The notes beneath the pieces were generated by a model. The model worked only from the letters and a program-made list of their open reading frames with translations, did not search any database and was not told the origin of the DNA. The position numbers were made by a program, and so were the translations under genes. 64,000 nt of DNA from Takakia lepidozioides (Eukaryota > Plantae > Bryophyta). This document shows, in pieces, positions 22,900-63,854 of this stretch; position 1 is the first letter of the stretch; every line of letters starts with the position of its first letter. Location of the stretch: positions 49,848,001 through 49,912,000 of the forward strand of contig CM060732.1 in NCBI GenBank assembly GCA_030704615.1, read 5' to 3'.

Positions 22900-23978
22900 A
22901 TCTAACAATGGAAGATTCATCATTTCTAGTCAATACCTTTAGCCAATCAAAAGGTAGTAAGAAGGTGGGTGGAGTGTTACCAGAAATAAGGCACCGGTGC
23001 ATAGATTTTGTCAGACACCACCTTGAAGGAAGGAGCTCCCAGAACTGGTTGGACCTTAGCTCGGCTCATATCTCCATGAGTTTCAGAGCAGATGCAAGTG
23101 TACAATACGCAAGCCATTTGGAACTCAACTAAATAAGGCTGCGCTTCTAGAGGGAGAACTGTCACAAGGAAAGATCACAACAAGGCCTGACATGACATAC
23201 GAGAGAGGCGGAGCTTAAGTGATAGCTTGTATTCCAGAGTTGGGCAGGAAGTTCAAGCTCAACGTGTCAAGACAAGTCACATCTCATTGAGAATCCCATA
23301 ATATATTCGTGTTCACTTCATCGAAAATCAAAGAATCTACACATTGGGTAAAGACGTAAGAAATTTCTAGCTCGACATGACAAACCCTATTTCAATAAAA
23401 ACCAAGGATCTGTCCATTTGCTAACGATGTCACAATACCACAGCTTGACTGAGATGACAGACAAAAAGACATTTGCTAAAGATGCAAACCACACCCTCTC
23501 ACTTAGATGACAGTCAAATGGATAGTGCATGAGACAAAAGTACAGTGCAGTGATCACTCCCTGAAGGTCCAGAGTGACTACTTCCACCACCAACTAAAGA
23601 ATGCCCCACAAGGAGATCCATCTTGGAACCAATCAAACTGCTACTTATTGTGCCTGACTGCCATCGAATTTGACACAGACAACGTCAACACCTAACTTCA
23701 ACCCCATACCAGGCCCACACCCCAGCCTGCTCTAGCCAGTTGCACGGCTGTAGCAGGCCTACATTCAAGAGTGCAACACTCCACCTACACACCAACCAGT
23801 CCCATCTGGTGCAACTTAAACCTCTTTAGTATTTGGGCATTTGTATTTACAGGCTCTTCTGACAACAAAATTTCAGCCAGCTCTTTGCTACCTGGCATGT
23901 ATTTCACTCTGTGTAGATACCACAAAGTGAGCTTTTGCCTACACATCCTCATGAGGTTGATACTTTACTCTTAAGGCC

Positions 23979-35460: not shown

Positions 35461-36059
35461 AATTATATAGCAATACATATGTGGATAATAAGAAGTAAAA
35501 AAAAAACTATTTTTTCACTGACCCAGCATATTAATAATAAACTAATCGTGTGCTGGTTAAGGTTAGTGAAACAAAACAACTGAATTATATGAACATAAAC
35601 GTCTTGCTGGCAGCTATTGGATGAACGTATGAAAGGTTAGTGAAACAAAACAATTGGATTACCTGAACGAGTGATAAACAAACGCCTTGCTGGCAGCTAT
35701 TGGATGAACGGATGATAATGCACTTGGCTGGGGTTTAGGGCTGCTAGGTTGCAGTGTGCAGCCTGGCTGGGACTTGGTGTTCTTTTGGGGTCGGCGTGGT
35801 TCGAGAGCTCCGCAGGCTTAGGGACTTAGCGTTTGTTTGTCTTTGTGCCACCATCTGTGTTTTCTTAAGGTTCGCGAACCAGGATAAGCGGTTTCTAAAA
35901 TACTAGTATCTTGCTGTGTGCACATGAGAGAGCGGGTGGGCGAGGGGAGGAGAGAATAGAGAGAGAGAAGTGCCGCGCAGCGAGTGTACTGTTTGTACTG
36001 TTTGTGGGATCGACCTGTATGTTTGCTCTTGTTGTGTCGACCACGGTCACGACGTGTGC

Positions 36060-39000
36060 TATATGGGAGCTTTAGAGCGGAGACAGCAGGGAGTGTTCAA
36101 CAGCATGGCTGAACGAGATGTGGTGTCGCGGAGTGCGATGATTGCAGGATATGCACAGCGGGCGCGGGATGGAGGCTTTGCAGACATATGAGCACCTTCT
36201 TCAACACATTTCAGCCTGTTTTCCCTGTTATCAGGATTCAGAGTCATCCCTAAATTTTCAGGTTGAATTCTGCAAGTTAGCTCGATGTTGGTGCAAAAAG
36301 GTGAATGCATGTTGGAAGCGCAAGTCAGCATAGGAACTAGTGTAGGGTTAGGGTGTTTGCTGGAACAAATCTAGGCTATCATTGTCCGCTGCTACTATGC
36401 ATGATTTGTGCTGAGGTATGGATAGCCGAAGGAGCAGGGCTAGAGTGTGGGTCCAGATTCATCCAAGAGGGCCGGATTTCAAGCTCCAGATTACCTATGA
36501 ATCCCTGTGGAATGATAGCTACAAGAAACCTGCATGCGTAGATGGTCAACTGGAAGCCGCAACAGCAGTAGCGGCGGCACAATTGATAAAATTCAGGTAC
36601 TGCTACTCAAGGCACCTTCTTCAACACATTTCACCCTGTTTTTTCCTCTTATCAGAACCGGTCCTAAATGTCTCTTAAGGCCTTCAGCAGATGGGTTGAA
36701 TAGAGTCACGTGGTTTACTTTTTCAACTTGATTTTCAGATCTTAGGGCATGCGAGAGACAGTGTCAACAATCAATCATTCTTCCTGCAAAGTCTTGGTAT
36801 GCACAATCTGAGACTTGAGATCCTCCACAAAGGCCAGCAAGTTTTTAGTTGAGGATCCACCCTCTGCCATATCCTCATGAGCACAATATTTGAGCTTCCC
36901 TACCCTGGTTCGAATTGCCATGCCCTCCTCCCCTGTCATTAGCTCCCTAATGTGTGCATGATTTGTGCAGAGGCAGAGATAGCTGAAGGAGTAGGGATAG
37001 AGAGTAGGTCTAGATTCATCCAAAAGGGCCAGATTTCAAGTACAAGATTACTTATGATTTCCTGTAGATCAATAGCTACAAGAAACCTGCATGGGTAGAT
37101 GGTCAACTGTCATGCCGCAGCAGCAGCGGCACAACTGATAATATCAGGCACTGGTAATCAAGGCACCTTCTTCACATTCACCCTGTTTTTCCCTCTTATC
37201 AGAATCGGCCCTGAATTTCCATGTTGAATTCTGCAAGTTAGCTGGTTGAGTGAATATAGTTTGGAGTGACTTTGACATGATACTGCCACTGTGACAACAG
37301 GAAAGTATCCAAAAATACGTAACAGAGATGAGGAGAAGCTGTGGAATGAATACTTTTCTGACCCCAGTCAATGGTGGGACACTAGGCAAAAAGGTGACTG
37401 CTTGTTAGATTACATGAGAGTAGCAGACGCAATTCAATATAGGAACTAGTGTAATAAGCTGAGTTGGGTGTTTCCTAGAACAAATCTAGGCTGTCATTAT
37501 CAGCTGCAAGGCAAGGATGTATGCATCATTTGTGCAGAGGCATGGATAGCTGAAGGAGCGGGGATAGAGTGTGGGTCCAGATTCATCCAAGAGGGCTGGA
37601 CTTCAAGCTCCAGATTACCTTGATTTCAGGTGGATCAGTAGCTACAAGAAACCTGCATGTGTAGATGGTCAACTAAACAATATGTCTGTCTGTTGCTTAA
37701 GTGCATCAAGATGGATGGTCTGGAAGCTGGAAAGCAGGTGCACACTCACATTATCCAAAGAGGATTCACACCAAATGTTTAGCACCCTTGTCAACATGTA
37801 TGTTAAGTGCGGGAGCATCATGGATGCTCACCAAGTGTTCAACAGAATGCCTCAATGATCTTTGATCACGTGTAATATTATGTTGGCAGGATTTACCAAG
37901 CGTAGGTGTGGTAGGAATGCTTCGGAGACCTATGAGCAAATGTTGCGCGAAGGGGTGAAGCTCAACCACATCGCGTTTGTTTGTGTTTGCAATGCGTGTG
38001 CAAGCCTGGGAGCTCTGGAAAAGGGCAAAGAGGTCCATAGTGACATTGTCAAAGCTGGAATTGTACCAGATGTCATCCTGGAACAGAAGCGGCAGCAGCC
38101 CAATTGATAGAACAATTCGCTGCTAATGAAGGTACCTTCTTCAATACATTTCACCCTGTTTTGCCATGTTATCTAAGTCGTCTCTAAATTTCATGTAGAA
38201 TTCTGCAAGTTAGCTCGTTCATGATGTGAGCTGGCATGAGTTTTATAAAGATCCTTCACGATGGTGGGACAACCGCAATCACAAGGTGTGGCTTTTCTTA
38301 ATGTACGATGTGAAGAAGTTTGTCCATCCTGCAAAGGTGGGCTCTTGGCTCCTGTTAGTACCATGATTTGGTATTCTTCCTGATGTTTACAAGGTTCTTG
38401 GGAGAGTCAGCTTGGTCTTAGTAGGCCGTGTTTCAATCTCTGCCTGCTCAGCTGCACCGTGGTGGTTCTCACAGACCAATCCAACATTACCTGACTACAG
38501 AGACAAACATCACACACAAGAGGTCATTTTGGGTTGATGCTCGGTCAAATCCTCCATGGGTCAAGGACAATGTGGTGAGGGCACCTTCTTCTTTGACCTG
38601 TTGCAGCCTGTTTTGCCCCCTCATCAGACTTGGCCTGAGATGCATATTGAATTCTGTAAGTTAGCTCATTGGGTGGATCTGTGGTGGTTTGGAGTGACTT
38701 TGAACTAGTGTGATAAGTAGGGTTGGGGTGTTTGCTGGAACAATTCTAGGCTGTCATTGTCAGCTGTTAGCAGCAAGGCAAGGATGTATGCATGATTTGT
38801 GCAGAGGTATGGATAGCTGAAGGGGCAGGGATAGAGTGTGGGTCCAGATTCATCCAAGAGGGCTGGATTTCAAGCTCCAGATTACCTATGATTCCATGTG
38901 GATCAATAGCTACAAGAAACCTGCTGCATGGGTAGATGGTCAAGTAAAGGTAGCAGCTGCAGCGGCACAGTTGATAAAATCAGGCACCTCAACCATGACC

Positions 39001-40345
39001 ACAGCTTCTGAAAGAGGATCAAGAGAGGGAGTCCACAATGCCTCTTCTACTGGGCATGTGAAGATGCTTTGTGAGGCAGGCAGACTGACAGAGGCTCTAC
39101 AACTTTAAACCAACAAGGCATTTCAGCAGATTCAGATATGTTTGTCTGTCTCTTGCTTAAGTGCATGAAGATGAAAGGTCTGGAAGCTGGAAACAGGTGC
39201 ACACTCACATTATCCAAAGTGGATTAACGCCAAATGTTTTTCTACTCAACACCCTTGTCAACATGTATGTGAAGTGTGGGAGCATCATGGATGCTCACCA
39301 GTTTTTCCACAGAGTGCCTCAACGATCTTGATCACTTGGCAGGATTTACTAAGGATGGGTGTGGTAGGAGTGCTTTGGAAACCTATGAGCAACTGCTGCG
39401 CGAAGGGTGAAACCCAACCACATCACATTTGTTTGTGTTTGCCATGCGTGTGCAAGGCTGGGAGCTCTGGAAAAGGGGAAAGAGGTCCATGGTGACATAG
39501 TCAAAGTTGGATTTGTACGAGATGTCATTATGAACACTGCCCTGGTGGTCATGTATGCCAGATGTGGGTGCATTAAGGATGCGAAGGGAGTTTTCAACAC
39601 TATGGCTGAACGAGATGTGGTGTCATGGAATGTGGGGGGAATGTGATGCTTGCAGGGTATGCACAGCAGGGACATGGTATGGAGGCTTTGGAGACCTATG
39701 ATCAAATATTGATGGGGGAAGGGGTGAAGCCCAACCACATCACGTTGCAGCATACTGGTACTTCACAGCCATGGCGGCTCTCTCAACCCCTCTATTTTTT
39801 TTTCCTTTGGTTTTTTTGGCGCTGGGAGAGAGCAGCAGCTTTGCTGTCTCCTTCCCCTTGCTTATGCCGATCGTTAAAGGGGAAATTGTCATTCTGAACT
39901 CTGCCTTGGTGGACATGTATGCCAAATGTGGGTGCAGCAAGCCTGATGTGAAGGGAGAGTTTGACAATATGGCTGAACGAGTTGTGGTATTTTGGAGTGC
40001 CATGATTGCAAGGTATGTGCAGCATGGGTATGGGATTAAGGCTTTGGAAACATAAGAGCAAATGATGTGGGAAGGGATGAAGCCAGACCAGGCCGTCATG
40101 TTCATTTGTTTTTGTAATATGCATATGCTAGCCTAGCAGCCCTGGGAAGGGGCAAAGAGGTTTATGGTGACATTATCCAAGCTGGAATTGTACCAGATGT
40201 CATTCTGAACATTCCCCTGGTGTACATCTACGTCAAATGTGAGCCTGGCAGCCCTCAAAAGGGCACAAAGGTCCATGATGACATCGTCAAAGCTGGAGTT
40301 GTCACTCTAAACACTGCCTTGGTGGATATGTATGTCAAGGCAACC
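36060..40345 (+). pseudogene. Tandemly duplicated, decayed PDF-motif + PLS-class PPR gene array
   Basis: PPR fragments (TLVNMYVKCGSIMDAHQVF, DVVSWN, GVKPNHITFVCVCHACARLGALEKGKEVH) with stops and shifts. Repeated IHPRGPDFKLQITYESLW and WWDNRNHK blocks. Confidence 0.85.
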
Positions 40346-42180: not shown

Positions 42181-42396
42181 TCATAGGTGGGGCTTCAGAT
42201 GACCCATCAAAAAATCATCCTTGTATGGATCTACAAGTGCTTCGTATTTAGGTAGGAAGATGTCCAGGCTCAGAGAATTGAGGAAAGACTTGTACATGTT
42301 CCCAACGACGTCGATAAGCAGGGTGTTAGACATGTAGGCTTTAGAGTCGGGGTCTACAAACAAGTCGTAAAGTCGTTTGAAGTAGATTGGGGCCAA
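42181..42396 (-). pseudogene. C-terminal half of a second FCP1-like HAD phosphatase (split by inversion)
   Basis: PIYFKRL...SNTLLIDV..NMYKSFLN....IF. The N-terminal half is at 46340-46671 on the + strand. Confidence 0.6.
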
Positions 42397-43750
42397 CGAG
42401 CCAAGAGGTTTAGGTGGGAGGGGACACACCTGCTCCGAATATGGGAGGATGGTCGAGTGAGGATTGTGCCTCACCCAACACAGCGGGCACGGTTAGTGCG
42501 GCATGCCCATGAGGAGTTGGGGCATTTTGGGGTGCGACGCACTCATAGTCTACTGCAGGGGCAGTATTGGTGGCGTGGTATGCACACAGAGGTGCAACAA
42601 TTTGTGGCTAGGTGCATGGTGTGTGATAGGGTGTGTGCTTCATTCAAACGCCCCTACTCCACAATTGCACCCTCTTCCGATCATGGGATTGGGCTACAGG
42701 TGGAGTCTTGACTTCGCAGGGCCATTGCCACTGACCATGCGCCACAACAAGTATGTGTTGGTGATGGTGGAGCACTTCTCCAAGTGGATTGAGTTGGTTC
42801 CATTGCCTGATAAGGCTAGTGAGGGAGCTGCGTATGCATTCTTGGATTGTGTGCTTAGCCGATTCGGTGCTCCAGCTGAGGTACTCACGGACCAAGGGAG
42901 AGAGTTCTTGGGGGAGTTTCAGGCTTTGTGTGACAAGGCCTTGATAGACCACCGCACCACTTCTCGGGATCATCCTGAGGCTGATGGCTTGGCAGATAGA
43001 GTTGTTCAGACAGTAAAGAGAGGTTTGCGCAAGTATGGCTTGCAGAAAGGACACCTAGGAGATTGGGACCTTCAGTTACCCTGGTTAGCCATGGGCTATA
43101 GGTTCAGCAAGCAAGCATCACTTGCCTCCTTTTCACCTTACTTTCTTCTCTTCGGCCGAGAGCCGGATTTGCCTACATCCATTCGCAGAGAAGCTGCTAC
43201 AGTTCTTAACCTTGACGATCCGGACGTGTGGGCACGTGCATGTGAGCAGCGTGCAGAGTTGTTCAAGAGAGTCATGCCCATGGCTTTCGAGAACCTTGCC
43301 ATTGCACAACACCGTGATACGTTGAGGTATGCTACCATACGTGGTGGGGGCTATCGTCCTGGGGTTCGGAGATTCAACCCTGGTGACTATGTCTATCTAC
43401 AGCAGACTACTTCTACGACCCTGGATGTGACTGCATGACGTGTTATTTTGAGGGTTCGAGAGGTCTTGCCCTCAGGCGTCTTGGTCTTGGAGGGTCGGGA
43501 TGGCATAACTTGGAAGGACCATGTGCGTAATTGTGCGCCATGTCACCTTCCGAATGTCGATGGCAGGATTGACCCAAACCTAGCAGTGGTATCTGCAGGT
43601 TTGAGGTGCATGTTGTGTGGGTCTGCTAAAGGAGCAGCCACCATGCTGGTGTGTGATCGATGCTCTAGAGGTTGGCATATGGGATGCTTGACTCCACCTC
43701 TTGAGATGGTTCCGGATGGGGATTGGTTATGTCCACATTGCATTGGATAG
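42397..43750 (+). mobile_element. Gypsy integrase (HHCC + DDE core) fused to a C-terminal PHD finger
   Basis: HEELGHFG...CMVC, WSLDF, VLTDQG, ADGLADR (third acidic residue reads D), SPYFLLFGR. One frameshift at ~42645 and an in-frame TGA at 43436. Then C4HC3 CMLC...CDRCSRGWHMGC...WLCPHC. Confidence 0.92.
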
Positions 43751-43998
43751 TGGGAGTGGATACAACCATGGAAGGCTAACAAGAAACGCAAGGCCCAGCT
43801 ACTAGGAGACCTTGAACACACGAGGTCCTGGCTCAAGTTACAGATTGCAAGACGGCGACTAATGATGGGGCTACTCTTGTACCCAGCCTCTTGGTCTATA
43901 GAGTTTGAGTGCAATAGGGGCAGTGATAGAGGACTTAGTACGGCTGTGGCTATCACATCTTGTAGCTATCTGGAGGTAGAGGGACCTACCCACCAGCT

Positions 43999-44009
43999 AG
44001 GGGGGCGAT
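43999..44009 (+). other. Polypurine tract
   Basis: AGGGGGGCGAT immediately 5' of TGTGG at 44010. Confidence 0.6.
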
Positions 44010-44538
44010 TGTGGCAGACTACTTTATTGTGCATATATGTGTGGTATGGTTTGGACAGCGATGTAGTTGTGTAGCGATACGTATGCGCACGACAGCTGTC
44101 AAGTTAAATAAGCACAGTGTGAAAACGACTAGAATAAAGCTAGTTATTTGTACTTAACACTTGGATTTAGGTCAAGTGTTAAGTCAGGTGTCAAGTTTAG
44201 TTTGACACCTGAACCGTCTTATCTTCACGAGAGCGGCAGTCGCGCAGCTCATCTCTCTCGAGTTGAGCCTGCGCGACCGAGCTCCTGCATCGTTTAGGAC
44301 TGAGTGTGCTCATGATGGGAGTGTAGGTTGTTGTGGGGTGGAGTCCCCACAGCTTGGGGTGCCCCTGGCTCGACTTCTGTTTTAAAGAGTGATAGCGATG
44401 GATTTCATATTTCTTGTGTTGGGAGTGTGTGTCCTTTTAGCTTTTCTTATCATTGTGACATACTACTTTATTGTGCATATATGTGTGGTGTGGTTTGGAC
44501 AGCGATGTAGTTGTGTAGCGATACGTATGCGCACGACA
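44010..44538 (+). repeat. 3' terminal repeat block: A (44010-44094) - GC - B (44097-44452) - T - A' (44454-44538)
   Basis: A and A' are 85-bp direct repeats with 3 mismatches. B is the reverse complement of 55701-56056, identical by eye over 356 bp. A-gc-B reads TG...CA. Confidence 0.92.
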
Positions 44539-44960
44539 TCTTCTTGACGCAGAGGTCCTCTTCCAATCTGGTTTCGTACATAAGGTTTGGTGAGGGGCGA
44601 GACAAGTATATTCTGCTTCAGGGGTTGTATCTTCCTGGAGAGTTCGACAATCCTTACATGAGCCGGCCAAAGTCATTTTCAAGGCCACTCATGTGCCTTG
44701 ATTACGTATTTCCTGCTACAGCTGCCCAGATTGAGAACCACGAGGAGCACCTGCAGGGAGTGCTGATGTTCAGCCCCATTTAAACCAGTGATTAAGGCTC
44801 CGGACACTGAGCTCACGAAACACGAGAAAGATTGTGCCGCTTATGAACACGAATTGCGGGCAGAGTCGAACGACTACATTGCGTCCTTGTTCTGTGGCGA
44901 AGGGATGACGGCTGTCAACGTTTTTGGAGGCGTAATGTTAACATCGGCTCTCTACGTAAG
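44539..44960 (+). pseudogene. C-terminal part of the host-transposon gene interrupted at 56057 (amino-methyltransferase motif-I-like end)
   Basis: Removing one TCTT copy fuses ...NAFVF (56057, minus) to FLTQRSSS... in frame. Downstream sequence reads ELRAESNDYIASLFCGEGMTAVNVFGG. Confidence 0.55.
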
Positions 44961-46339
44961 CAATTTCATTTCCATTTCCAATTCGATTTCCATTTCCGAA
45001 ACACATCTTTGGAACCTCGCGCGATCACGCGTTCATTCTATTTACTCAATGGTTGGCATCTTTTGTAGGCTATGAACGTCCGAGTCATCACAACCTGAAA
45101 AAAAAAATTTGCGCGATTAAGGTTGCCGCTAACTACACACTCATCCACACGGAGAATGAGGACGGAACCGAGGTTGGTGATGACACATTGGGAGGGCAGG
45201 GAGACCCACAGGCACAATGGCGAAGGAAATGACGACGACGATGACGATGAAGATGACGGACAAAGAGATTTGGAGACAGAGCAAAACCAGGAAGAAGGTG
45301 ACGGAAACGAAACGTTGGACAAAAATGAAGAACTTGAGGGAGGTGAGGAAGACAAGGGCGACTACCAACACGATGATGTCGTCAACAATTTCTTGCAAGA
45401 GGAGACAGAATAAATTGAGCAAGGCAGAATTCCACCAGCTGATCAAGCAGGGAGGGTAGTACTAGAAGAAAGCCACCATCCACAGGCCCAGACAAATATC
45501 GGTGAATGAGACAATCCCGAGACAACTGTGCTGTCTTCCTCCACTGAAGAAGTGGAGGGAGACAATGTAAAGGATAACGCTGATTCTAGAGACATCTTCG
45601 ATAAGGAGATTTCAGAAATAGACTCAGAGGTGGGATTCAGTCCTGTGGAGGGGGATATGCCATTACGGATATCACCATATCAAGGTTTAAGCCAACGAGT
45701 TAGAGACATCGTTGATGGTCAGGCATCTAGGGCATTGGTCGGCAATCAAAACTCTGTTGACGTGAGTATTGCAGATTATGAGCTGTCCTGACACTTGTAA
45801 AACCCAATTTATAGCAAACTTGATATAACACCAGAATCTTTTACCAATGGAACTAATAACCTATTGCTCTGTGATAGTCTCGTAAATCAATCGAAATATA
45901 TACGGAAGTCTAATCACCCGCATTTTCTGTAGATCCGTGAGTCCAATACGGAGGAAGTGACACATACCAGAACAAACGACACACAACAGCGTACAATGAA
46001 GAAACAATACGACTTGAGAGTGAGAATATTGTCGCCCAAGGTAGTAGCTTCAGAAACCGCGAGCGATCGTGCGAGGTTACTTATGAGACGGGTCGACAAA
46101 AACATACCGAACGGCGAAAGACCCATCGCCGGGGGAATTGGCGGCGAAACCTCATCCGGCTTGGAGCAAGTGCCGCCAAAGCTGGTACTTCATTCTCCGC
46201 CTTCTGTTTTCTTTTCTGCATTCCATTGCGAAAAACTTCCAATGAATTAATAATTATTTCATAATGGGCAAGATGATATGATCTATCCACCACACAACTA
46301 TTCCCAAATTATCAATCCCGCGGATTTCTTTGCTCTTCC

Positions 46340-46671
46340 AATGGGTCCAAATAGATGTCAGCCCGGATATTATGTCCTGGTTTTGGATGTCGGGTTTTAT
46401 GTGAGGTCTACCTCCAGAATGGGCCAAAAACCCCTCCCGCAACGCAGCCTTATATCTCCACTGAAAGATTTAAGTTAGCAATGCGACATGAGGTGTGAGA
46501 CTTCCTCAAATGGGTCGTTAAGAAGTTTTGGGTCATCTTATAGAACACTAGCAAATAAGAGACTGCCGTGGATTTCAAATCAGCCTTGTTCGGGATGAAC
46601 GCCCACAACGTCAAGCATTACAGTTCCGACCAATGTGTGGAACATAGACTTACTTTCAACACATATTGGCC
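46340..46671 (+). pseudogene. N-terminal half of the second FCP1-like phosphatase
   Basis: YVLVLDV.GFLC...MRHEV*DFLKWVVKKFWVIL*NTS, read across a frameshift and stops. Confidence 0.55.
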
Positions 46672-48388
46672 ATCCCTCTCCTTGGCAGTCACAGTGGCTG
46701 CCGTGTCTCCACTGCAGAGGTAGTCCAACACAACTGAATCCTCATGTATATCTTTGGCGCCACCCTGCTCATTGCTGGCCTCAGGGTCCTCAGACACTTG
46801 ATCTACAGTCATCCCTGTTGTAGGTCCAACCTGGCCTTCCGCTGCCAAGATACACAGAAATGCAGATGCATGCCATCCGGGCACCATCTCCTCGTCCGTC
46901 TCACCATGCCACCGAGCTCCAGTGTCATCCTGCTGGCTCGTGCATGGATTGCGACTCAACCCATCTGCATTGCAATTGACCAAACCCGGTCGATGCACCA
47001 CCTGAAAGTCATACTCTTGAAGGATGAGTGCCCACCGTGCAAGCTTCCCCGTAAGTTTGTCTGACTCCATCAACCACTTGAGTGGTTGGTGATCCATGAC
47101 AAGGGTGAAGAGATTGCCGTATAGATAGCACCTGAAGTGTGCCACGGCCCACACTGCAGCTAAGCATTCTCCCTCATATGAGCTATACTTAGACTCTGCA
47201 GCATTGTTCGAGCGGCTAGCATAAGCCACTACGAACTCTCTTCCCTCATCATCCACCTGTGTGAGCACCGCTCCAAGCCCCAGCATGCTCCAATCTGTAT
47301 GCAGCTGAAAAGGACGCCCCCTGATAGGTCGTCTCAACATGGGCGCCGAGGTCAACCTCGCCTTGAGCTCTTGAAAAGCTTGTTCTTGCTCATCTTCCCA
47401 CTGCCACTCCTTGTCCACCTTGGTCAGCTTGGTTAGAGCCTTTGCAATGGCACTAAATCCCTTAACAAACCGTCTGTAATAGTTTGCTAACCCCATGAAA
47501 GCTCGAACTCGGCTCACATCCGTGGGGCGTGGAACCTGTGCAATGGACTCTACCTTAGTCTGCTGTATCCCCAATCCTCTAGGATATATCATGTGACCTA
47601 GATACTCAATCTGGTTGTGGAAAAACTTGCATTTTCCCGGATGTAACTTCAATCCGTGCGCCCTCAAGCGCTCAAATACCCCCTGAAGGTGTCTCTCATG
47701 CTCCTCCACCGTAGCACTAAAGATGATGATGTCATCTATGTAGCACCGAGCAAACTCCACCCCTGCTAGAATCTTGTCCATGACTCTTTGAAACTCAGCG
47801 GGAGCGTTTTTAAGCCCAAATGGTAAGAACCGCCACTGGTATAGGCAACTTATCCGCCTCCTTGATCGGCAACTGGTGATATCCGGATCGTAAATCCAAC
47901 GTGCTAAAGACCTTGGAATGCCCAATGGCATCAAAGATCTCCTCTGGTGTCGGCATGGCATACCTATCGGACTTGGTCTGACGATTTACAGGCCGGTAAT
48001 CACCGCACATACGTCTCTCCGTCCAATTGCCATAGACATCCTTCTTGGCCTGCATCACTGTGGCTGAAACATACTCTCCACCAGAGAGCTCCACCAAACC
48101 TGTCTCCCAGAGATCTTGAGTCCTCATCTGAATCAAAGACCTCTCCATGTCACTGTATCTATAGGGTCTCCGAAAGATTGGCGTGTCAGTGGCCAACTCA
48201 ATACGGATCTCTTGACCCTTCAGTGCTCCCAAGTCCTTCAAATTGAAGGCAAAGCAATTCCTGTAAGCCCTCAGGAACCGCCGTATACGTCGTCTCTCTC
48301 CTCCGGTGACAATGGGTCCAATGTGAGGCTCCCAATTGTCCTCCGTAACTGCAACCTTAAGTCCAGTGGGCTTAGAGGTAGAGGACAC
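46666..48388 (-). mobile_element. Gypsy reverse transcriptase and RNase H
   Basis: RMCGDYRPVN, FSTLDLRSGYHQL, LPFGLKNAPAEFQ, YIDD (~47731-47743), YLGH, LHTDWS..GLGAVL, YASR, DHQPL, ADGLSR. One deletion/frameshift at ~47845. Confidence 0.95.
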
Positions 48389-48587
48389 GTCCCGTGGTTG
48401 CTATGCTGCAACCTCTTGAGCAGTACTCCCTTCTTGCTCAGTCAATGACAAGGCCTCATCCTGCCCCATCATCTCATCATTGAGAACCTCCTCATCCCGA
48501 GAAGAATCCCCAACCTCATCCATCACAGCTGCCTTGGCTGCCAACTCCCTCTGAACCTCGAGCACCTCCCACGTGTGTCATGGATGT

Positions 48588-49709
48588 CTACACCCCGTGG
48601 TCCTCACTCGCTGCCTGTACCATCTCGGCAGGCAGAGAGACCATGAAGGGGAGTGCACTCCGCACTCTACGTTGCTCAGCCATAGCCAAGCTGATAATCC
48701 AGGTCAAGCAATTGAGATCCATTGCTTGCCCCAACACCTGACGTCGTGATGCCTCAGAAAAAGAAGGCACCGCCGTGGTCCCAGTGGAAAACCCCATAGC
48801 CCGTTCTCGCTCGTTGGCATTAGGCTCCACTAACTGCTGCAATTGAGCATCCCACAGAAGGCCAGGTCCACCATCCCGAAAAGCATGGAATCCTGGGAAG
48901 CTGAGCAGTGTAGGTAATGCTGCTCGTGGTTGACCCACCCTGTTGACCACTGCCAAAGGCAAACGGTCATCGTGTCTCACACGTTTAGACTGCCTCCCCG
49001 TGTCCAAAATGCCATCCACGGTGAGGTGTGCTGGCCGCTGCACCCCATCAAATGCACGCTTGAGTAGTGCGGGTGGCATCAAATTAATCCACCAAAGCCG
49101 TGGACGATGAGCCCGTGACCCCACTGCAGCTGCATCCAGCAACACTGCTAACCCAAGCCACGATCGGACTTGATGCACACTGGCCATCACCCTGGCCCGA
49201 GAATCACCCATCAGTGGCACATTCTCCAAGATGTATGTTGGAGATACAGCTTGATGAAGCTGCAAGTAGCGCAAAATCCGCACCATCTCCCAAAACAGAC
49301 CCGTCCTCGAGTCTCGCAATCCATTGCCATGCCCGGCTGATGAATGCCCTTGGCAGGGCCAACCTGCCACTACCAGATCAATGGAGCCAACCTGCTCCAA
49401 ATCCTGCGCCCCCAACAAAGAAATGTCTGCTGGCAAGGCTTGTTGGTATCCACGAACTGCAAACACTGGCAACAAGTCAGGGTATTGCTGTACCAACTGA
49501 GCAACATGGCACAGTGAGACGCGTCGTGCAGTCTCATCCCTCTCCACATACAGGTAACGTCGAACTCGTACACCTGCCTGCAACACTGCAGCCAATCCAG
49601 TGCTGATCCCGCCAAACAAGTCCAGAAGGCATATGCCTTCATCCGGGCACTGCCACACAAGAGGTGTGGTGTCCAATGGCGACAACTGGGGTGGTCCTGG
49701 TGCAATCAC
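48588..49709 (-). CDS. DNMT3-like C5 cytosine DNA methyltransferase domain inside the retrotransposon polyprotein
   Basis: Uninterrupted 373-codon frame with motif I DLFGGISTG, II YVERD, IV GWPCQ (catalytic Cys), VI ENV, VIII SRAHRPRLWW, IX ERERAMGF and X RRQVLGQAM. In frame with gag-PR, separated by one TGA. Confidence 0.92.
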   Translation of the reverse strand: MIAPGPPQLSPLDTTPLVWQCPDEGICLLDLFGGISTGLAAVLQAGVRVRRYLYVERDETARRVSLCHVAQLVQQYPDLLPVFAVRGYQQALPADISLLGAQDLEQVGSIDLVVAGWPCQGHSSAGHGNGLRDSRTGLFWEMVRILRYLQLHQAVSPTYILENVPLMGDSRARVMASVHQVRSWLGLAVLLDAAAVGSRAHRPRLWWINLMPPALLKRAFDGVQRPAHLTVDGILDTGRQSKRVRHDDRLPLAVVNRVGQPRAALPTLLSFPGFHAFRDGGPGLLWDAQLQQLVEPNANERERAMGFSTGTTAVPSFSEASRRQVLGQAMDLNCLTWIISLAMAEQRRVRSALPFMVSLPAEMVQAASEDHGV

Positions 49710-49724: not shown

Positions 49725-52136
49725 TCATGACGGTACGAAAGTAATGGCCAACTGATGTCGTGTCATGCCCCGAGCCTGCTCTGATCCTCCCAGAGATGTC
49801 TGTATCTGGAAAGGACAAGGCTCCATATCCGCCTCCATGAGGCCCAAACCTGCAATAGCAGCTCTGCCCAACATCAGTGGCTGAGCTCCCGAGTCCAACA
49901 AGACCCGCAGTGGCCGGTACTTCTTGCCTGCCGGTCCACTCAAAGTGAAAATGTCTCCCTGGTTGTCTAACAAGACAACTCCATGTATCACCATGGCGCG
50001 CTCAAAGGCTGGCCTAGCTGGCAGCTCCGTCAACCTGGCAGCTGCAGCTTGCCATGGCGCAGCCATGGCAGTCTTGACCCTCAAATCCGAGGATCCCTCT
50101 GCCACTATACCTTCCACTAACTCCGCAGAAGATGAAGTGACCTCCTCACTCTCACAGAGTGTTGCTGCTAGTCTTAACACTGCAGCTGGTCTTACCCCCG
50201 ACGTCGCAATCATGGTTGCTGAGAACAGTGGGGCTTGACACACAGAGGTGGCTGCCCCCAACAACACACCGGCTGCACTAGCCTTGGCAGCAGGTGTCAG
50301 TGCTGCACGTGTAGCTCTCCCCAATGGCATAGTAACCTCCGCCTCGGTAACAGTCGGGCGAGAACTAGGTGCCATGGATGGCGTCGACACTATCTCCGCC
50401 AATGTGAATGACTGAGGAAGCCTCGCCTGACGGCTTGCCTCCCCAAGTTGTGGATCCAACTCCACCTCTGCACCTCGTGGCTCAGGAACTCGTGCTGCTC
50501 CTCGAGTCACGGCTGCAGCAGACTCCACCTGCTCTAGTGGTAGTGCTACTCCGCACATAAATCCCATGCCTCCCATATCTCCTCCCTCAGGAGCAGGAGG
50601 TGGACCATCCCGCCTGGGAGCCGGTACCGCCTGAGCTGTAGCCATGGCAGCGAGCCTCTGCTCTAGCTGCTGAAGCCGGTTGGCCATGCCTTGGTCAACA
50701 CCCTGACCTCCGCGTCCTTGGCCATGTTGAGCTTGCCCTTGGCCTGCACCTCGTGCCCGACCACCTCGTCCTCTCTGGGCTGGTCCACCTCGCCCCCGGC
50801 CACCATTGTTCCCTTGGAACTGGCCTGGGTGCAACTCAGGATGCAAGTCATAACACTGGGCATCTCCATGCCCATACTTGCCACAATGCCCACACTGCAA
50901 CTGTGCAGGCTGTACTTGTGTCGGCCTTTTGCCACTCTCTGGGCAATCTCTTTTGACATGGGGTCCTCCACATGTCCAACATATCACCCATGGTTGCTGT
51001 TGGCCTGCAAAAGATGCCACGGGCCTCTGCCCCTGAGGTCCCCTGTAAGCTCCATGGAACTTGGGCTGGGCAACCTTGCCCCCCTGACCACGCTGTTGGG
51101 CAGTACCTTGTGCCTGTGGGCTGGCAGCTGCGCCTTGTGCAAGCATGTCCTTGCCAAATCCAATGGTAACAACTCGCTCCTCCACCATGTTGAGCTCAAT
51201 CCGCTCAACCAGCAGAAACACATCTGCTAATGTGGGTTGGGCTGCTTGTAACAGGGTTGCATCTCGCACCCTTCTCTTGAGCTCCTTGTCCAGAATTCCA
51301 TACCAAAACTGGATTGCCTGAGCTTCAGTAACCCCTTGGGTCACACTTATCAAGCGCCTCATACGAGTGTACGCCTCTCGCAGGCTCTCACTGGGTTTGC
51401 GCTGGAAGTCTTGCAAACTTTGCAGCTTCTCTGTCCGTACACCTTGGTAGTTCCTCCGCAACTCCTGGAAGAACTCCACCACCGGGTTGAATCTAGGCAC
51501 ATGTGTTGTAGTCGTGGCAGGAGGAGTAGTAGCACCTTTTGAACTGGTACCACCTGCAGAAGTACCGGCACTACTTGCTCCACTACTAGTGCTGGCAGTG
51601 GGAGATATTGGTACTGATGCAGCTACTGGTCGCGTCGTACCTCGAGTAATGGAGACGTAGTTAGGTGACCAATACATCCTCCACTCCTCAATCTCTACTT
51701 CATGTCCTCGCCTGAACTCGTGGTAATCGTCCATAGGCGGGCCTTCCAAATGCTGGAACAGTCCCTTCCACGCCATGAATGGGGTGAATAGCTGTGGATT
51801 GCGCATCTGCTGCAAATCACACCAGCTGTCGAACTCCTAGATAAAGTCATCCAACTCGATTGTGCCCACAGCTCCAGAGTACCTACGAGGCCCCTTGGTA
51901 GCTCCATACATCTCCTCCATATCGTCCCACAACAATGGCGAATGAAACTGCACACCTGTTGATGAAGCCTCCGAGTCTGTGTTTGACTCTGCACTAGTTG
52001 AGGGTGGAGGTGAAGGTGGTCTGAAACGAACACCTCGTCTGGTGAACCCACTCTCACTGCTACTGCCTATAGCCGTACTCCCCTCAAAACCCTTGGGTAA
52101 CTCCGTGATGACACTCACAATGTGCACCTCCCCCAC
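49725..52136 (-). mobile_element. Gypsy gag (two CCHC knuckles) + aspartic protease
   Basis: Gag QRKPSESLREAY; CWTCGGPHVKRDC and CGHCGKYGHGDAQC; LLDSGA. In-frame TAG at 51837-51839. The protease C-terminal half appears deleted. Confidence 0.9.
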
Positions 52137-53405: not shown

Positions 53406-53889
53406 ACAAGGAATACATCCCCAGATTTATCTCTCATGTAGACCAGAACAGGTTCTAGAAACAAGATTGTGGATCTTTCATGGCACACTCACACTCTAAA
53501 AATTCCATAGATTTCTAGCAGAGTCCCAAAAACAGAAACCAGGTCTAGATAGGTAGATTTCCCCTTTCTGCAGCTATCCCCTCAAAAACTGAGTCAAACG
53601 GAGCTCATTTGACAAAGATATGACCAACCAGGCTTTTTAAACATTTAAATTAGATAAAAAATGCCCCCTTTTTTTTTTTAACACCAAAACGTTTTTGCCA
53701 TTACAACCTGTTCCCAGGTTATCTACGGGTTCCCGAGGCCGTTCCCCTCCAGGCTTCTCCGGGCACCAAGAGCTCATTAACTCCAAAACTCGACCTCAGT
53801 TGGGTGGGGTATCACACCCTGGAGGCGATTTGCTTTTCTCTGCGCGTGGGCCTGCCTCCTCGAGCTTTCAGGATGGCAAGGCAGTAGCC

Positions 53890-54000
53890 ATGTTTATGGC
53901 ACGCAGGAAGATTCAGAAGGAGAAGGGGCTCGAGCCTGATGAGTTCGAAGAGGCTGTAGCCCAGGCCTTATTCGACCTAGAGACTACAAACCAAGAATTG
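53890..54000 (+). pseudogene. RPS7: Captured fragment of 40S ribosomal protein S7 (eS7) N-terminus
   Basis: [37 protein letters not shown] matches the plant eS7 N-terminus; similarity ends abruptly. Confidence 0.85.
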
Positions 54001-54229
54001 GGGCGATTTCAAGAGCAGATGCACTGCGCAGCACCTTCATGGCTTATGGACAGGCGGCCTGCTGTAATGTGGCCGTCTTTGCATGGAATGCAAGGCCAAG
54101 ACCAGCTTGAAGTTCCATCAACTTGGTCTAATTCGCATCTCTCGCCAGCAATTATTGTTGGCTTAGAATGGTTTCCGCCTTCCTGTTACTGCTCGTGTTT
54201 CTGCCCTGCTGTTGTTGTGCATCGATAGC

Positions 54230-54595
54230 TTCGGCATCTCTCGGGAATCCATAGCGCATGCGTTGCTTGTGAAGCCTTTGGTTCTGGTTAGTCCCGGCAA
54301 TTGCAGCTCAATTCAGCACCAGCTCCGACAAACCGCCTTCTTGCCTCTCCCTCTGAGATCTGCAAGGACGAAATGTGTCGCTTCCAAACCATCAACAAGC
54401 TTGATTTCTGAAGGATTCTGGACTCCTTCATCCAGTGACAGTCACCAAGTCTGGTCCATGAGGAGTGATCTGGAGTTACCCACCTCAACATATGCTTATG
54501 AGGGGCCAATTGCTCAGGGAGGGCAGGGCCCATCACCCATGTTGGCTGAGCGATTCCAAAGCGTGATCACTCAGCTTTTTCAACAACGAATCATT
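54230..54595 (+). pseudogene. CLPP5: Captured fragment of plastid ClpP5 (transit peptide to start of protease domain)
   Basis: VWSMRSDLELPTS...QGGQGPSPMLAERFQSVITQLFQQRII resembles ClpP5 WSIRDDL..PSS...GQGPPPMVQERFQSIISQLFQYRII. No intron in the fragment. Confidence 0.8.
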
Positions 54596-55537
54596 CCACC
54601 TTGGCTGGCCGATACTGCCGTTCCAGCTGGAGTCGGCATTTTGTGTCTTCACAAAACCAAACAAAACCAAACTGCAGGAATTTGCGATTGCCTCAGTAAA
54701 GTGGAACTCAATTTGCAGCCGCTGGTGCAATGGGACCTTGCCAAGCAGCCCCTTCTTGATGTCAATCTGCAGCTCGCGCAGAGGAAGCGCAGCAAGAAAA
54801 ACTCCTTCACAAATTGACGGCAGGCACCTCTTCCAACATGCACCACATCAGCAGCAGCAAGGTCCAAGCCATTGGGTTTTTCATCAGAGGCGACAAGTGC
54901 AGTTACTGGGGAAATCTGTTCACCCTCAGCCTGCAGGTCCCCCTTTCTATATCAATTGCTCATACAACCCTTCTTAGAACCCTGTGTAGGAGCTTTCCGG
55001 ATGTTTTTCCCTGCAGCCATGACGGACACTGTGAACGGGAGCTTGGCCTTCAACGCTACTGCCTGTGTGCGCTTCGAACATACGATTGTGATCTGCACAC
55101 CAAGCCAAGGTATCTGCCACCGTACTCCCCCGCTGCACGGATGGCATGCAGCTCAATCTTTCAACCCGTTTTCTTCTGGTGGAATTCCGGCTCAAGCAGG
55201 GAGCTATTTCTGGAGCTCGTGCTTACCACCCTCCTACAACTGGCAACGAGAGAAACCCTACCAGCTGCTATACGACAGTGGTTTCAGGACCTTCGTCCAA
55301 GTAGCTATGGATCCTTTACCCTGCACAGCCTTTCGACAAGATCATTGCGATCGAGGTCTGTCCTCAGAACCTCGCACTCGAACTAGATCGCAGCTTGCTT
55401 CCGCAGGTAGCTTTCAAGCGTGGAATCCCGTCTTCCCCTTTCAATCATAGGTTATGGTGAACACATTCTTCTGCTGCCCCCCGAATCAACTTCCTCCAAA
55501 ATACATCGCTCCTGTGCAACAACAACAAAATGGAAAA

Positions 55538-55624
55538 CGCTTCTTGGACGAGCTTGGTATGGCTTATGACAAGTTGGAGAACCACGTTGTCATCAAGCAT
55601 GCCGCTCTCTTCACCTCGACCATC
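55538..55624 (+). pseudogene. THI1: Captured fragment of thiamine thiazole synthase
   Basis: [29 protein letters not shown]; [12 protein letters not shown] is the THI1/THI4 signature. Confidence 0.85.
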
Positions 55625-55700
55625 GACATAGTGCTAACATAAAAGAACTCTATCTAGCTTAGCACTACAAGAAAACTAGATACAGCTGATCTATCTCGAG

Positions 55701-56056
55701 TGATAAGAAAAGCTAAAAGGACACACACTCCCAACACAAGAAATATGAAATCCATCGCTATCACTCTTTAAAACAGAAGTCGAGCCAGGGGCACCCCAAG
55801 CTGTGGGGACTCCACCCCACAACAACCTACACTCCCATCATGAGCACACTCAGTCCTAAACGATGCAGGAGCTCGGTCGCGCAGGCTCAACTCGAGAGAG
55901 ATGAGCTGCGCGACTGCCGCTCTCGTGAAGATAAGACGGTTCAGGTGTCAAACTAAACTTGACACCTGACTTAACACTTGACCTAAATCCAAGTGTTAAG
56001 TACAAATAACTAGCTTTATTCTAGTCGTTTTCACACTGTGCTTATTTAACTTGACA
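55701..56056 (-). repeat. 5' terminal repeat (B only) of the DNMT-Gypsy element
   Basis: Starts TGTCAAG at 56056 and ends TATCA at 55701; preceded by TCTT, the same 4 bp found at 44539-44542. Confidence 0.92.
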
Positions 56057-58255
56057 AAGAAAACAAATGCATTGGGGCTCAGCTGTTGTTCGAAGAACGC
56101 ATCGAAAATATTCTTGTAATTTCTTTGCATAAAAACATTTGAGTCATCGTCACAGACTGTGTTGACGAACACCATTGTGATGTTATCGAAATCCCTCTTT
56201 CTCACAATTTTCAACTGTGTTTTGGCATCCGTGAACCTCCGCTTCCCTCCTATGCACTGGCAATGTGACTTGAAGGTATCCTTGAGGTTGCCCATTTCCT
56301 TCTCCATGTTTTCAACCATTTTCTTACATGAAAGCACGTATTTGATGAAAGCGTCACTCACTTTTTCGGTCTTCATGTTCACTTTGCTTTTCATGTATTT
56401 GGCCCCCAGTTTCGATCGGAATGTCTCGAACTCCGACTTGTTGAACTTGTACATTTTTTTCACTTCGAGCCATTGTGCTTTTGTGTACGGCTCTGGATGC
56501 GGCTTGCTTCTGGCATCAAATCCCAATACCACCATGACATCATCGATTATAAACCCTCTATCCTTTATTCGATCGATGTAATCGGATAGACAGAGAATCT
56601 TGGGGTCTTTTCCCTTGTAAGGACCACGAACATAGATCTTCAAGTCCAAAATCTTTTGCGCAACCTTCTTCATTTGAAGGGTGTTCAATCCTTGGAGTTT
56701 GCAGACTGCAGATTTTTTGAGCTGCAATTGTACACCCTTGTGCTTCTTACCGTTAATGTCCAGGAGGGTTCCCTTCTCCCACTCTCTGAAAACCTCCTGC
56801 CACTTCTCCCAAACATCGTCATTGCAAAGGACCAAGGTCATGGCCTCCTTAAACTCTAAGCATCTCCAATATAAGTTGTGAGGCTTGCAAAAATTCTTGG
56901 TCAACAGGAACAGCATGTCAGGCCAACACACAACAGGGACACACAGTTCTAGTGAATGTACAACAAAACATTAAACAATAAAGGAAGTCTAAATAATTAC
57001 CTTCCACTGAACGGTTTCAGATTTGGAAACGTTATCGTTGAATTTCTTGGGCTTCCCCCTCAACTCATAGTACATTCTGGCGTGAGCAACTTTCTCCGGG
57101 AATGTTGTTTCGAATTTTTGGGCTTTATTTGGGTTGTTCAGGAGCTTAGAAATCTTCAGCAATCGATTATTGCTATCTGACTAGAGGATAATTGATGGTC
57201 GTTCGGCGTAGTAGTCCCTCTGCTCCCGGTCAGTAATCTTCTCCACAAGTTCTTGATTTGGAAAATGTTACATCGGCATGGAATTGAACTAGAAAAGAGC
57301 ACGCGCGATTGCGCGAGAATAATAATGAGGCAACGCAAAGAAATATTCGAAAGATGATTATCATAGAAGTAGAGAAGAATATAGAAGCACGCGCGATGCG
57401 CGAGGTAAACGTTGATATACTATACCTTTGCAGCCATAATTGTGTGTTAGCCTCCAATTACGAAGAATTTTGAATTGTTAATATCCTTCTGATGCCTTGG
57501 TTTCATCGCAGACACCTGGGTTGGCTCCTGTTCGTTCCTCGGCGCCAGATACACGGGATGTTTCGTATCTAGAACCCGCAACTGGTACAGACGGGCTTTT
57601 ACTTCATCTTTGTGATTAATATTCAGCGGACGATACACCATGCTTCTTGGAGCAAGTTCCATCATTGAGATGTCAATTGAGATTATGTGGTTGAACCCAA
57701 AAGATGTTTACCTTTACTTTTTACCCCCTTCGTTGCCGCATCGTCTCGTTGTTTTCTGTTGATGTTTCCCTGCGCATGGAGTACATCTTGGAAAATGCTC
57801 CAAGCTTGTACGAATCCCTGAGCAGTCAGGGCTGCACCACCTTCAGGGAAAGTGAATCCCATCTTTACAGCTGGTTTCATCATTGCCTTGCGAACGCGGC
57901 GAGATTCTAGAGAAAAACCAAACGTCTTTTTCGCTCTACCATCTTCCAAAATGAAAACCACCATCATTGGATTCTCCACGTCCGACTCCATCTCAACATC
58001 TTTAACGTTGCCATAATTAATCTCCTTCACCTCCGCTCCAATCTTGAAGGAAAACTTCAATTGGTGGTCAGGAGGTACACCCACAGGATTTATTCCCCAC
58101 TCGGAGATCGTCTGGTTAAGAGTATACAAAGCTACGTGGTCTATGCTGAAGTTTGGCGATTTTGTTGAGATGAACTCCCCACATATCTCCTTGCATACGC
58201 CAACCAGGCAATCCGCCAGTATGTTTGACTGACCACTGAACATGAAACACAACAT
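56057..58255 (-). pseudogene. Multi-exon transposon cargo gene with a ParB-like N-terminal region, interrupted by the Gypsy insertion
   Basis: YRPLNINHKDEVKARL...FFVIGG*HT (GGQH with a CAA>TAA change), a GT-AG-bounded exon at ~57001-57177 and a long exon at 56931-56057. Confidence 0.5.
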
Positions 58256-62465: not shown

Positions 62466-63854
62466 TCACACAAAACATTTTGAGGGAGGGTGTTCGGGGA
62501 GCAACATCTCATTCTTCCAGAACTCCCTGTATTTTTTAATTCCAGTTTTGATAAAAGATTGTTTATCGGATGAGTCATCTCCCACACCCCAAATTGGTGT
62601 TTTTTTTACAGCCCTGGGTTGTACTGCTACAGGCAACTTTGGAGATCCATCGGGATTCGACTTCCACATCTTCACCGCACCTTTTTTGGGGAGCCACTCA
62701 GAATCAGTAGCAAACTTCTTAAACTTCATGACAGACAAACCATCTTCATCTACATAGAATCGAAATACATGCATTTTTGTTTGCCCAACTAAAGACTCTT
62801 TTCCATCGAGAATGCAACCGTCCACATACGCCTTGAAATCTGGCACTTCTTGAATGATTTGAGGAATAAATTGCAGATCTTGAGAGATCATAAAAAACCT
62901 CATAAGATCGGAGAGAACGTAGGTGTTGTTTTGCTTCAGCTTCTTCGATAAATAACTGAAGAATCCGTCGATGTCCTCATGGGTATGGCCAACCATGAGA
63001 AATCCCATCTAAACCTCCTCAAACACTCCTCTTACAGTTAGGAGCGACATCATAGCTAGCATCCACCTGTTTTTGTTTTCCTTCACGCGGTTGTCCAACT
63101 GCAGGTAGAGTCTTTGGGGAAGTGGGACTTTTCCTTTTTTCTTCTCCTTATCGCCGAAAGGTTTCAAGACGTCGAGACACCTCGATTTACCCTTCATGAG
63201 AGATTCGAAAAAAGAATTCTGAGGTGGGTGGTCAAAGATGTTACGACTTTCGCGGCAAGAGGGCTTCTCTAGTTAGTGGAGGCATCTTGCTAGAGAGCCA
63301 ATCGTGAAGTGCGGGTCTCCCGGCAAGAAGTCCAGAGAGTATTGTCCGTAGGCTCCGTCCCCGTGGCCGTGGGTGACCATGCTGGTTAGTGAGATTGGAA
63401 GCTGACCTAAGCCGGAGACCATCTTGTTCGTCGTCTGCAACCTTGGAATAGCTGTTTTCCGATGATCCATCTTGTCATGAATGATGCAGAGGAACTCGGA
63501 TGGCATCATAGCTGACTCATTCCTCCAGCTGTGATAGAGTCTCCTACAAGATTCCTGAAGCCTAAGGTGCTTATCAAGTGCTTTCTTGTGCGAGGCCTGC
63601 TCATCACTACGTTTGACCGACTTCTTGATTAGGTCTTTGAACATCTCACAGTCTGTGCATTTGGCAAACGTGCTACCATTTTTTCTAACCTGGACATTGG
63701 GAAAAATCTGTTGTCTGATTCTGCTGACGGCTGCCTGGGAGATAGGCTTCAACCCACATATTTTATTTGCCTGCAAGACAGACAGGGGAAAATGAACCTC
63801 GCGCGATCGCCCGAGCTTTAATAGTGAGAGGTCTGATATATTGCGTGGAAGCAA
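62466..63854 (-). mobile_element. Sola-like DDD transposase pseudogene (5' part probably outside the window)
   Basis: One reading frame with two stops (63273, 63009): FAKCTDC, IIHDKMD, LYLQLDNRVKENKN, FLMVGHTHEDIDGFFS. Confidence 0.7.

Follow-up and report, generated by a model that had tools for sequence, protein, structure and literature searches.

What does a PHD finger do at the end of a retrotransposon integrase, at the place where a chromodomain could be expected? This question is raised by the window analysed here, a 64,000-nt stretch of the Takakia lepidozioides genome. The answer that we hold to be reasonably probable is that the finger is the last integrase domain of a dead element of the Gypsy-DNMT3 kind, which in active relatives would tether the integration complex to nucleosomes via the free N-terminus of histone H3 and would probably disfavour promoters marked by H3K4me3. 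Few integrase-borne chromatin readers other than chromodomains are known in plants, and if the PHD binds H3 tails, it would represent a second reader-based targeting route across green plants.

The C4HC3 PHD finger is complete at 43607-43741 (+), with the spacing C-x2-C-x11-C-x2-C-x4-H-x2-C-x14-C-x2-C, and is followed by two residues and a TAG stop codon at 43748-43750. Its Pfam match has an E-value of 1.6e-11 (44.4 bits against a cut-off of 24), and PHD structures superpose on its AlphaFold model (pLDDT 87.9) with an rmsd of ~1 Å over 46-50 columns. The integrase core (rve in Pfam, E 1.9e-14), a linker, an SH3-like module and the PHD lie in one frame (42692-43747 (+)), interrupted by a single TGA at 43436-43438. 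In a relative of 91% identity, P0024, there is no break at the TGA position and the same final residue precedes the stop, indicating that the TGA is damage and that the protein normally terminates after the PHD. An earlier note on this DNA had described the finger as intact and in frame with the integrase apart from one TGA. Indeed, the finger and its frame with the core are as described, but the TGA is not the sole break in the integrase, since the H2C2 zinc-binding domain (42475-42633 (+), Pfam E 1.8e-16) is in another frame than the core, with the shift near 42647, the third DDE position (codon 42995-42997) deviates from the Glu seen in most rows of alignment A1, and the element is split by an inversion.

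Ahead of the PHD lies an SH3-like module of β-strands (43373-43546 (+)), which gave no Pfam SH3 match and was matched to the SH3 (GPY/F) module of a chromovirus integrase by alignment position. The chromovirus integrase of locus L076 served as positive control, being recognized by Pfam as SH3 plus Chromo (Chromo E 6.2e-12), and when it was aligned with the window integrase, its chromodomain and the window PHD were found to begin at the same point. No Chromo domain was matched by Pfam in the window, nor in the relatives scanned (28 and 22 proteins, one common to both sets). Judged from this alignment, the PHD occupies the chromodomain slot of the integrase C-terminus, as had been claimed earlier. 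The arrangement is like that of chromoviruses in having a histone-reader domain after an SH3-like module at the integrase C-terminus, whereas chromoviruses have a chromodomain and ordinary LTRs and the window element a PHD and split repeats (Neumann et al. 2019, PMC6317226). PHD is not mentioned in the accessible portion of that REXdb paper (PMC6317226). In addition, the module ends with a conserved P-C-H, part of the motif H-x2-N-C-x-P-C-H directly before the PHD (43520-43546 (+)); P-C-H is present in 262 of 296 fingers, and its Cys and His are kept in 97-100% and 92-93% of relatives, respectively. The motif is possibly an extra metal site, and UHRF1 has one ahead of its own PHD. True chromoviruses with SH3 and Chromo domains were also observed at L076 (11939-13042 (-)) and L070, adjoining a member of the PHD family.

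The integrase belongs to an element that spans 56056 to 44538, a broken and dead copy split by a local inversion. On the minus strand, from 56056 down, a 356-nt repeat is followed by a leader, gag, protease, C5 methyltransferase, RT and RNase H, ending at 46672; on the plus strand, from about 42394, come the integrase, the PHD and the 3' repeats. The ORF1 region with gag, zinc knuckle and aspartic protease lies at 49725-51836 (-), with a stop at 49725-49727 and a layout as in relatives, although the gag assignment in the window has a Pfam E-value of 0.0027, under the cut-off. A DNMT3-like C5 cytosine methyltransferase domain follows at 48591-49670 (-) (E 5.7e-13), and the frameshifted RT and RNase H (46672-48400 (-)) run up to the inversion breakpoint. 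The order gag-protease-RT-RNase H-integrase, a DDE integrase, TG...CA ends and a short target duplication, all expected of Ty3/Gypsy elements, are present. Its sequence features assign the element to the Gypsy-DNMT3 kind of Ty3/Gypsy retrotransposons and make it a relative, in a land plant, of KnitGypsy-Dnmt3.

The inverted segment (42394-46671) lies between integrase and RNase H. In contigs of other copies, the RNase H linker continues into the integrase, and the other joint is crossed un-inverted by host-repeat contigs (in both cases in runs X1 and X3 from one sample). Because a 6-nt word is common to both breakpoints and contigs join both uninverted joints, the two halves are taken as one inversion-split element. 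The inversion may be natural or an assembly error. An assembly artefact was also considered as the source of the integrase-PHD fusion and was rejected, the same fusion being found in proteins of relatives and at metagenome loci.

TCTT flanks both element ends (44539-44542 and 56057-56060). Within the element, the summed contig depth exceeds that of the flanks several hundredfold; this is not a copy number, but the excess points to a very large family, and the PHD family is apparently very abundant in T. lepidozioides. The landing site is itself a repeat, because its flanks are covered by several contigs differing by a few percent. The insertion interrupts a host repeat ORF at 56057-56970 (-), which resumes at 44539-46671 (+) and 42394-41300 (-), and the latter part holds a NIF/FCP1-like phosphatase piece (Pfam E 2.7e-5). 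A second NIF/FCP1 look-alike lies across the inversion in the host repeat, and an ESM Atlas search with the host repeat ORF returned nothing above 0.79. The nested landing had been read as consistent with targeting. The site is indeed a multi-copy repeat, but in a window so rich in repeats a single insertion does not count as evidence for targeting. An insert in the leader (53700-55660 (+)), absent from most copies, contains antisense pieces of the host genes RPS7e (E 8e-5 to 4e-4) and Thi4 (E 2e-4) at flank-like depth; it probably consists of mRNA fragments captured in a sub-lineage.

The fusion is not peculiar to this copy. A search with the integrase-PHD query retrieved 452 proteins at E<=1e-20 among 3586 candidates, the best 120 of which include proteins from Calypogeia, Marchantia, Sphagnum, Klebsormidium, Tetrabaena and Chromochloris, and Pleodorina, Volvox and Haematococcus are found among the best 120 of 169 longer matches. 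The 561 cluster representatives at E<=1e-30 (best 150 listed) extend the family, and the PHD is present in 119 of 120 further cluster representatives; PHD counts from the longer proteins and cluster representatives are inflated, as the query itself held a PHD. The earlier note had named as contrary evidence intact copies that stop before the PHD. Intact relatives do not end there: at metagenome loci picked by motifs upstream of the PHD, the finger is present in 72 of 80; among the remaining eight, four end at a contig edge, two break earlier and two align through a decayed PHD region. Moreover, in comparisons of the window with the 14 of these 80 loci that have gap-free matches in both PHD and core, the PHD is under purifying selection (pN 0.21, pS 0.64; core 0.14 and 0.74).

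The best 120 of the 169 longer matches consist of 25 proteins with the layout RT-RH-DNMT-integrase-PHD, 29 shorter pieces of that layout, two with DNMT-RT-RH-integrase-PHD, 23 with RT-RH-integrase-PHD and 41 pieces without RT or DNMT. In an RT-RNase H tree of 83 proteins (a quick tree with a midpoint root, as were all such trees), two branches are separated with an SH-aLRT of 99, a short-tailed one of 24 rows, in which the DNMT lies upstream of RT, and a long-tailed one of 59 rows, in which it precedes the integrase. In a second quick tree, the window falls in the short-tailed branch, next to Marchantia proteins at 79% identity. The outsiders in this second tree comprise only two near-identical chromoviruses and one other Gypsy element, both far off, the chromovirus of L070/L076 being on a branch 1.68 changes per column long. 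No relatives of the integrase or RT were found in the viral contigs searched, and an ESM Atlas search with the pol of a relative gave generic Gypsy clusters only. On these sequence comparisons, the integrase-PHD plus DNMT layout is the rule in a large, old and partly described family across green plants.

The nearest structures of the finger are readers of unmodified or acylated H3. PDB sequence matches are led by CHD4, PHF12, PHD1 of KDM5B and KDM5A, ATXR5, DPF3 and BHC80, and matches of the predicted model include DPF3, BAZ2A/B, UHRF1, ATXR5, BHC80 and ORC1b, many of them solved with unmodified H3, which agrees with the H3-reader type assigned earlier. Residue conservation was examined in 296 distinct intact fingers (71 short-tailed and 225 long-tailed); 300 of 415 proteins passed the pattern, so that the Cys and His columns are fixed by this selection. 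The Asp after Cys3 is present in the window and kept in 95% of short-tailed and 94% of long-tailed relatives. The window also has the P-x-G-x-W pocket, of which the Pro is kept in 94-98% and the late Trp in 98% of short-tailed and 91% of long-tailed relatives. In solved PHDs, the Asp after Cys3 and the residues of the Ala1 pocket contact H3 Arg2 and Ala1 (PMC3214078; this and the other papers are cited from the portions available). From this residue pattern, the free H3 N-terminus is the likely ligand.

The position two before the His ligand, which we take to be the column of the H3K4me3 cage Trp, is Gly in the window, in 97% of short-tailed and in 89% of long-tailed relatives; in this putative column, the cage Trp of H3K4me3 readers was seen neither in the window nor in most of the 296 relatives. 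A Met three before Cys3, presumably a cage-type position of H3K4me3 readers, is kept in 92% of short-tailed and 76% of long-tailed relatives and would suit a finger that recognizes H3K4me3 and directs the element towards promoters or open intergenic DNA elsewhere, but the Gly column and the nearest structures, with their unmodified or acylated H3, make this very improbable, and exclusion of H3K4me3 is the likely outcome judging from these residues. Insertions of Gypsy-7a often lie in UTRs and intergenic DNA (PMC9940879), which would also suit H3K4me3 reading; however, the cage of H3K4me3 readers needs a conserved Trp (PMC3214078, PMC5415848).

Readers of unmethylated H3K4 have an acidic residue before Cys1 or an acidic wall before strand β1. 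The window PHD has no acidic residue at any of the four positions ahead of Cys1 or in the loop preceding strand β1. An Asp three before Cys1 is present in 39-44% of relatives (39% of short-tailed ones), about half of the short-tailed relatives are without an acidic loop residue, and an acidic loop is common only in long-tailed relatives. The UHRF1 PHD reads K4 loosely (PMC3214078), and by analogy the finger here may do so as well, or its binding may be weak. The loss of acidic residues in the land-plant branch would also fit a PHD that has no part in guiding insertion and that serves the integrase as an accessory structural or protein-binding domain, for instance in multimer assembly, in handling the unusual DNA ends or in recruiting host chromatin factors after insertion. 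The conserved P-C-H upstream, which hints at a module packed with the SH3-like domain, and the four bases adjoining the 3' ends of relatives, in which no common motif was found, are in line with such a role. We nevertheless consider it doubtful, because the best-kept residues are the ones that contact Ala1 and Arg2 of H3 in PHD structures (PMC3214078) and because the slot is the one that chromodomains use for targeting. Targeting through the H3 tail, the reading that we prefer, is testable with the 50-residue domain and with the existing insertion and chromatin maps of Marchantia and Chlamydomonas.

A similar element is Gypsy-7a_cRei of Chlamydomonas reinhardtii (Craig et al., PMC9940879), a Gypsy LTR element with a PHD in Gag-Pol, which differs from the window element in that no methyltransferase is among its listed domains. 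Intergenic insertions of Gypsy-7a_cRei are 2.6 times as frequent as by chance, a bias that would fit PHD-guided placement, and its PHD was proposed to reduce harmful insertions, although the authors allow selection as the cause of the bias (PMC9940879). PHD is reported as a common accessory domain of Chlamydomonas elements (PMC8557442), and PHD-transposon fusions have been surveyed (10.1101/2021.11.30.470311).

We then consider the methyltransferase, which sits 5 kb from the integrase-PHD segment and on the opposite strand, yet in the same element. Its best PDB matches are DNMT3A (E 1.1e-9) and DNMT3B, and motifs I, IV (PCQ), VI (ENV), VIII and X are present in the window copy; DNMT3 kinship is judged from these matches and motifs. 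The catalytic Cys is conserved among relatives in both layouts, in 34 of 36 DNMT domains of one and in 88 of 92 of the other, in which the DNMT precedes the integrase. In DNMTs between RNase H and integrase, the Pro ahead of the catalytic Cys is often Glu. The CpG observed/expected ratio in the element is ~0.5, a depletion no stronger than that of the lipase ORF in the window (0.45), and thus no sign of self-methylation.

The earlier note had inferred that the element pairs a chromatin reader with a DNA methylation writer, and had drawn an analogy to the ADD domain of DNMT3. The pairing holds for the element, the DNMT and PHD co-occurring at 27 of 32 metagenome loci with at least 1.7 kb before RT, but in land-plant-type elements reader and writer are mostly on separate ORFs, and some lineages have the PHD without a DNMT. 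In the window, DNMT and RT are in different frames, and the copy is damaged near the boundary. Among 56 longer DNMT proteins, 26 end 55-172 residues past the DNMT without RT and only seven run into RT, while 14 have the DNMT between RNase H and integrase, eight are cut at the DNMT and one is a patchwork. Because of these 26 ORFs against seven, land-plant-type elements appear mostly to have reader and writer on separate ORFs, the DNMT usually ending ORF1 and the PHD ending ORF2. An ADD-like unit, in which the PHD senses unmethylated H3K4 and steers or switches on the methyltransferase of the element, is therefore not what the window suggests: in its branch, ~1000 residues of RT, RNase H and integrase separate the two domains, the acidic residues associated with K4me0 are absent from the window copy, and the DNMT has shifted its position within the clade, the PHD remaining attached to the integrase. 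Three complete protease-to-PHD proteins (P0203, P0222 and P0385) are without DNMT, and the listed PDB and fold matches of the finger are canonical PHDs with no ADD structure among them. Neither in the window nor in the relatives examined was the ADD-type arrangement found, in which a single protein has the reader immediately N-terminal to the catalytic domain.

On the other side, that the two domains travel together and that the catalytic Cys is conserved would both fit such a unit, as would the 53 of 83 full RT-to-PHD proteins in which the DNMT lies directly before the integrase in the same ORF. Gypsy polyproteins are cut by their own protease. In this algal layout, a joint DNMT-integrase-PHD product is possible. 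Overall we regard an ADD-like unit as unlikely, and the PHD and DNMT as two tools of one element, because they rarely share an ORF in the window branch and because the DNMT was moved or lost, whereas the integrase kept its PHD. We propose that the DNMT3-like enzyme works independently of the PHD, on the cDNA of the element itself or on the fresh insertion, since land-plant-type elements mostly encode it on the other ORF and it can disappear where the PHD is retained.

The closest described element is KnitGypsy-Dnmt3 of Klebsormidium nitens (de Mendoza et al. 2018, PMC5890265), a Gypsy element with a DNMT3-like domain, which was named Gypsy-DNMT3 of streptophytes in a preprint (10.64898/2026.05.21.726589). 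The window element shares with it the Gypsy domains, the DNMT3-like domain upstream of RT, and DIRS-type repeats in which two A repeats flank the ORFs and two B repeats flank the 3' A, a layout of the A...B-A-B type already found in one figure legend of that paper (PMC5890265). Its DNMT is reportedly in the Pol ORF, whereas in the window and most close relatives the DNMT ends ORF1, and in yeast it showed no activity, a result called inconclusive (PMC5890265). The word PHD is absent from the text of PMC5890265 and the three of its supplementary files searched, while its figure may show the domain; the Klebsormidium proteins P0009 and P0049 have both rve and PHD at 52-57% identity. KnitGypsy-Dnmt3 was described, in the text available, from K. 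nitens only (PMC5890265), and the clade found here reaches liverworts, mosses and chlorophytes, which expands Gypsy-DNMT3 beyond a single alga to a large clade in which the DNMT can occupy two positions. EpiLTRs (10.64898/2026.05.21.726589) are also LTR elements that join a DNA methyltransferase with a chromatin reader, but they have a chromodomain and a DNMT4-related enzyme instead of a PHD and a DNMT3-like one. In the full-text literature searched, subscription papers and theses apart, we found no description of an integrase-PHD plus DNMT3 clade in land plants, nor of the junction between the B and A repeats described below.

This less known part of the family is the element ends. The repeats follow the layout A...B-A-B, with A alone at the 5' end and B-A-B at the 3' end. 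Repeat A1 forms the 5' end (55701-56056 (-)), next to the target duplication at 56057-56060. At the 3' end, a polypurine tract (43999-44005 (+)), in the same place in relatives, stands directly ahead of the 86-nt repeat B1 (44009-44094 (+)), whose last bases are GACA. B1 is followed by the 356-nt repeat A2 (44097-44452 (+)), identical to A1, and by repeat B2 (44453-44538 (+)), which forms the 3' end, with the second TCTT directly next to it. The junction of B1 and A2 (44090-44101 (+)) is a palindrome made of the right end of the element, 2 nt and the left end.

Both repeats were found in the relatives L036, L050 and L064 by self-comparison and in L004 by inspection. Among five elements with both ends, the 4-bp target duplication is exact in three, holds in three of four bases in one and is absent in one. 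Of 62 sequences that extend for at least 450 nt beyond the PHD, 31 have the B/A junction palindrome, compared with 5.7% in shuffles; the pattern was derived from the same 62 sequences and allowed for C-to-T decay, and several loci are the same insertion seen twice. B2 is present in 28 of the 31 palindrome-bearing sequences, 27 of which end in ACA.

Because the polypurine tract precedes B1, B-A would be an ordinary LTR, and this arrangement suggests that the integrated form is a two-LTR circle opened at B/A. Reverse transcription would give B-A at both ends, the ends would then be joined, and the DDE integrase would open the circle at the built-in CA-nn-TG palindrome inside one repeat, producing A...B-A-B and a 4-bp duplication. 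Transposases of the IS3 family open such end-to-end junctions. A palindromic two-LTR junction can be cleaved in vitro by HIV-1 integrase (PMC1905944). Alternatively, extra template jumps may lead to a linear A...B-A-B molecule. The conserved palindromic junction behind the polypurine tract, which suggests integration from a circle, makes a specific claim on how a DDE integrase makes DIRS-like ends. The B copies of the window differ at 3 of 86 positions, all in the 5' half, compared with 0 of 355 in A (Fisher p 0.007). The idea that each cycle re-copies the 3' half of B but not its 5' half was dropped, as 28 elements gave 113 differences in the 5' halves and 221 in the 3' halves.

DIRS elements of the PAT/Ngaro type have split direct repeats, use a tyrosine recombinase and are not known to make a target duplication. 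In contrast, the window element has a DDE integrase, TG...CA ends and a 4-bp duplication, and no tyrosine recombinase was matched in the window ORFs scanned, where rve and H2C2 are present. What the two have in common is the A...B-A-B layout, in which the end-to-end junction is repeated internally (review file of PMC5890265).

Unlike EpiLTRs, several long-tailed relatives (P0148, P0150, P0169, P0190, P0204, P0219 and P0237) add Tudor-like and amino-methyltransferase-like domains after the PHD. A D-P-x-x-G-x-G motif followed by S-P-P-F or S-P-W-F is present in 23 of 109 tails longer than 250 aa, and MethyltransfD12 matches in long-tailed relatives are weak (E 0.002-0.003, under the cut-off). 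Taken as one system, a clade from chlorophytes to bryophytes might integrate from a circle, dock its PHD on H3 tails away from K4me3 promoters, pre-methylate the new copy with the DNMT3-like enzyme and, in algae, add a Tudor-like reader and an amino-methyltransferase; we offer this combination tentatively, as a possibility with the balance somewhat against it.

Other features were observed elsewhere in the window. A broken ORF resembling a DDE transposase contains a DUF7869 domain at about 62700-63150 (-) (E 2.4e-36), and a gag-like piece recognized by eye at 59700-59950 (-), with no Pfam match, possibly belongs to another nested retroelement. Degenerate tandem repeats resembling PPR motifs extend over 36000-40340 (+). 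A 1045-codon ORF with a class 3 lipase domain, along with a protein kinase piece, was noted at 17064-20201 (+) and 10691-11374 (+). Finally, two pairs of inverted repeats of 47-55 nt, 3.3-4.6 kb apart (21590-21644 with 26237-26291, and 22857-22903 with 26251-26297), are possibly the ends of DNA transposons.
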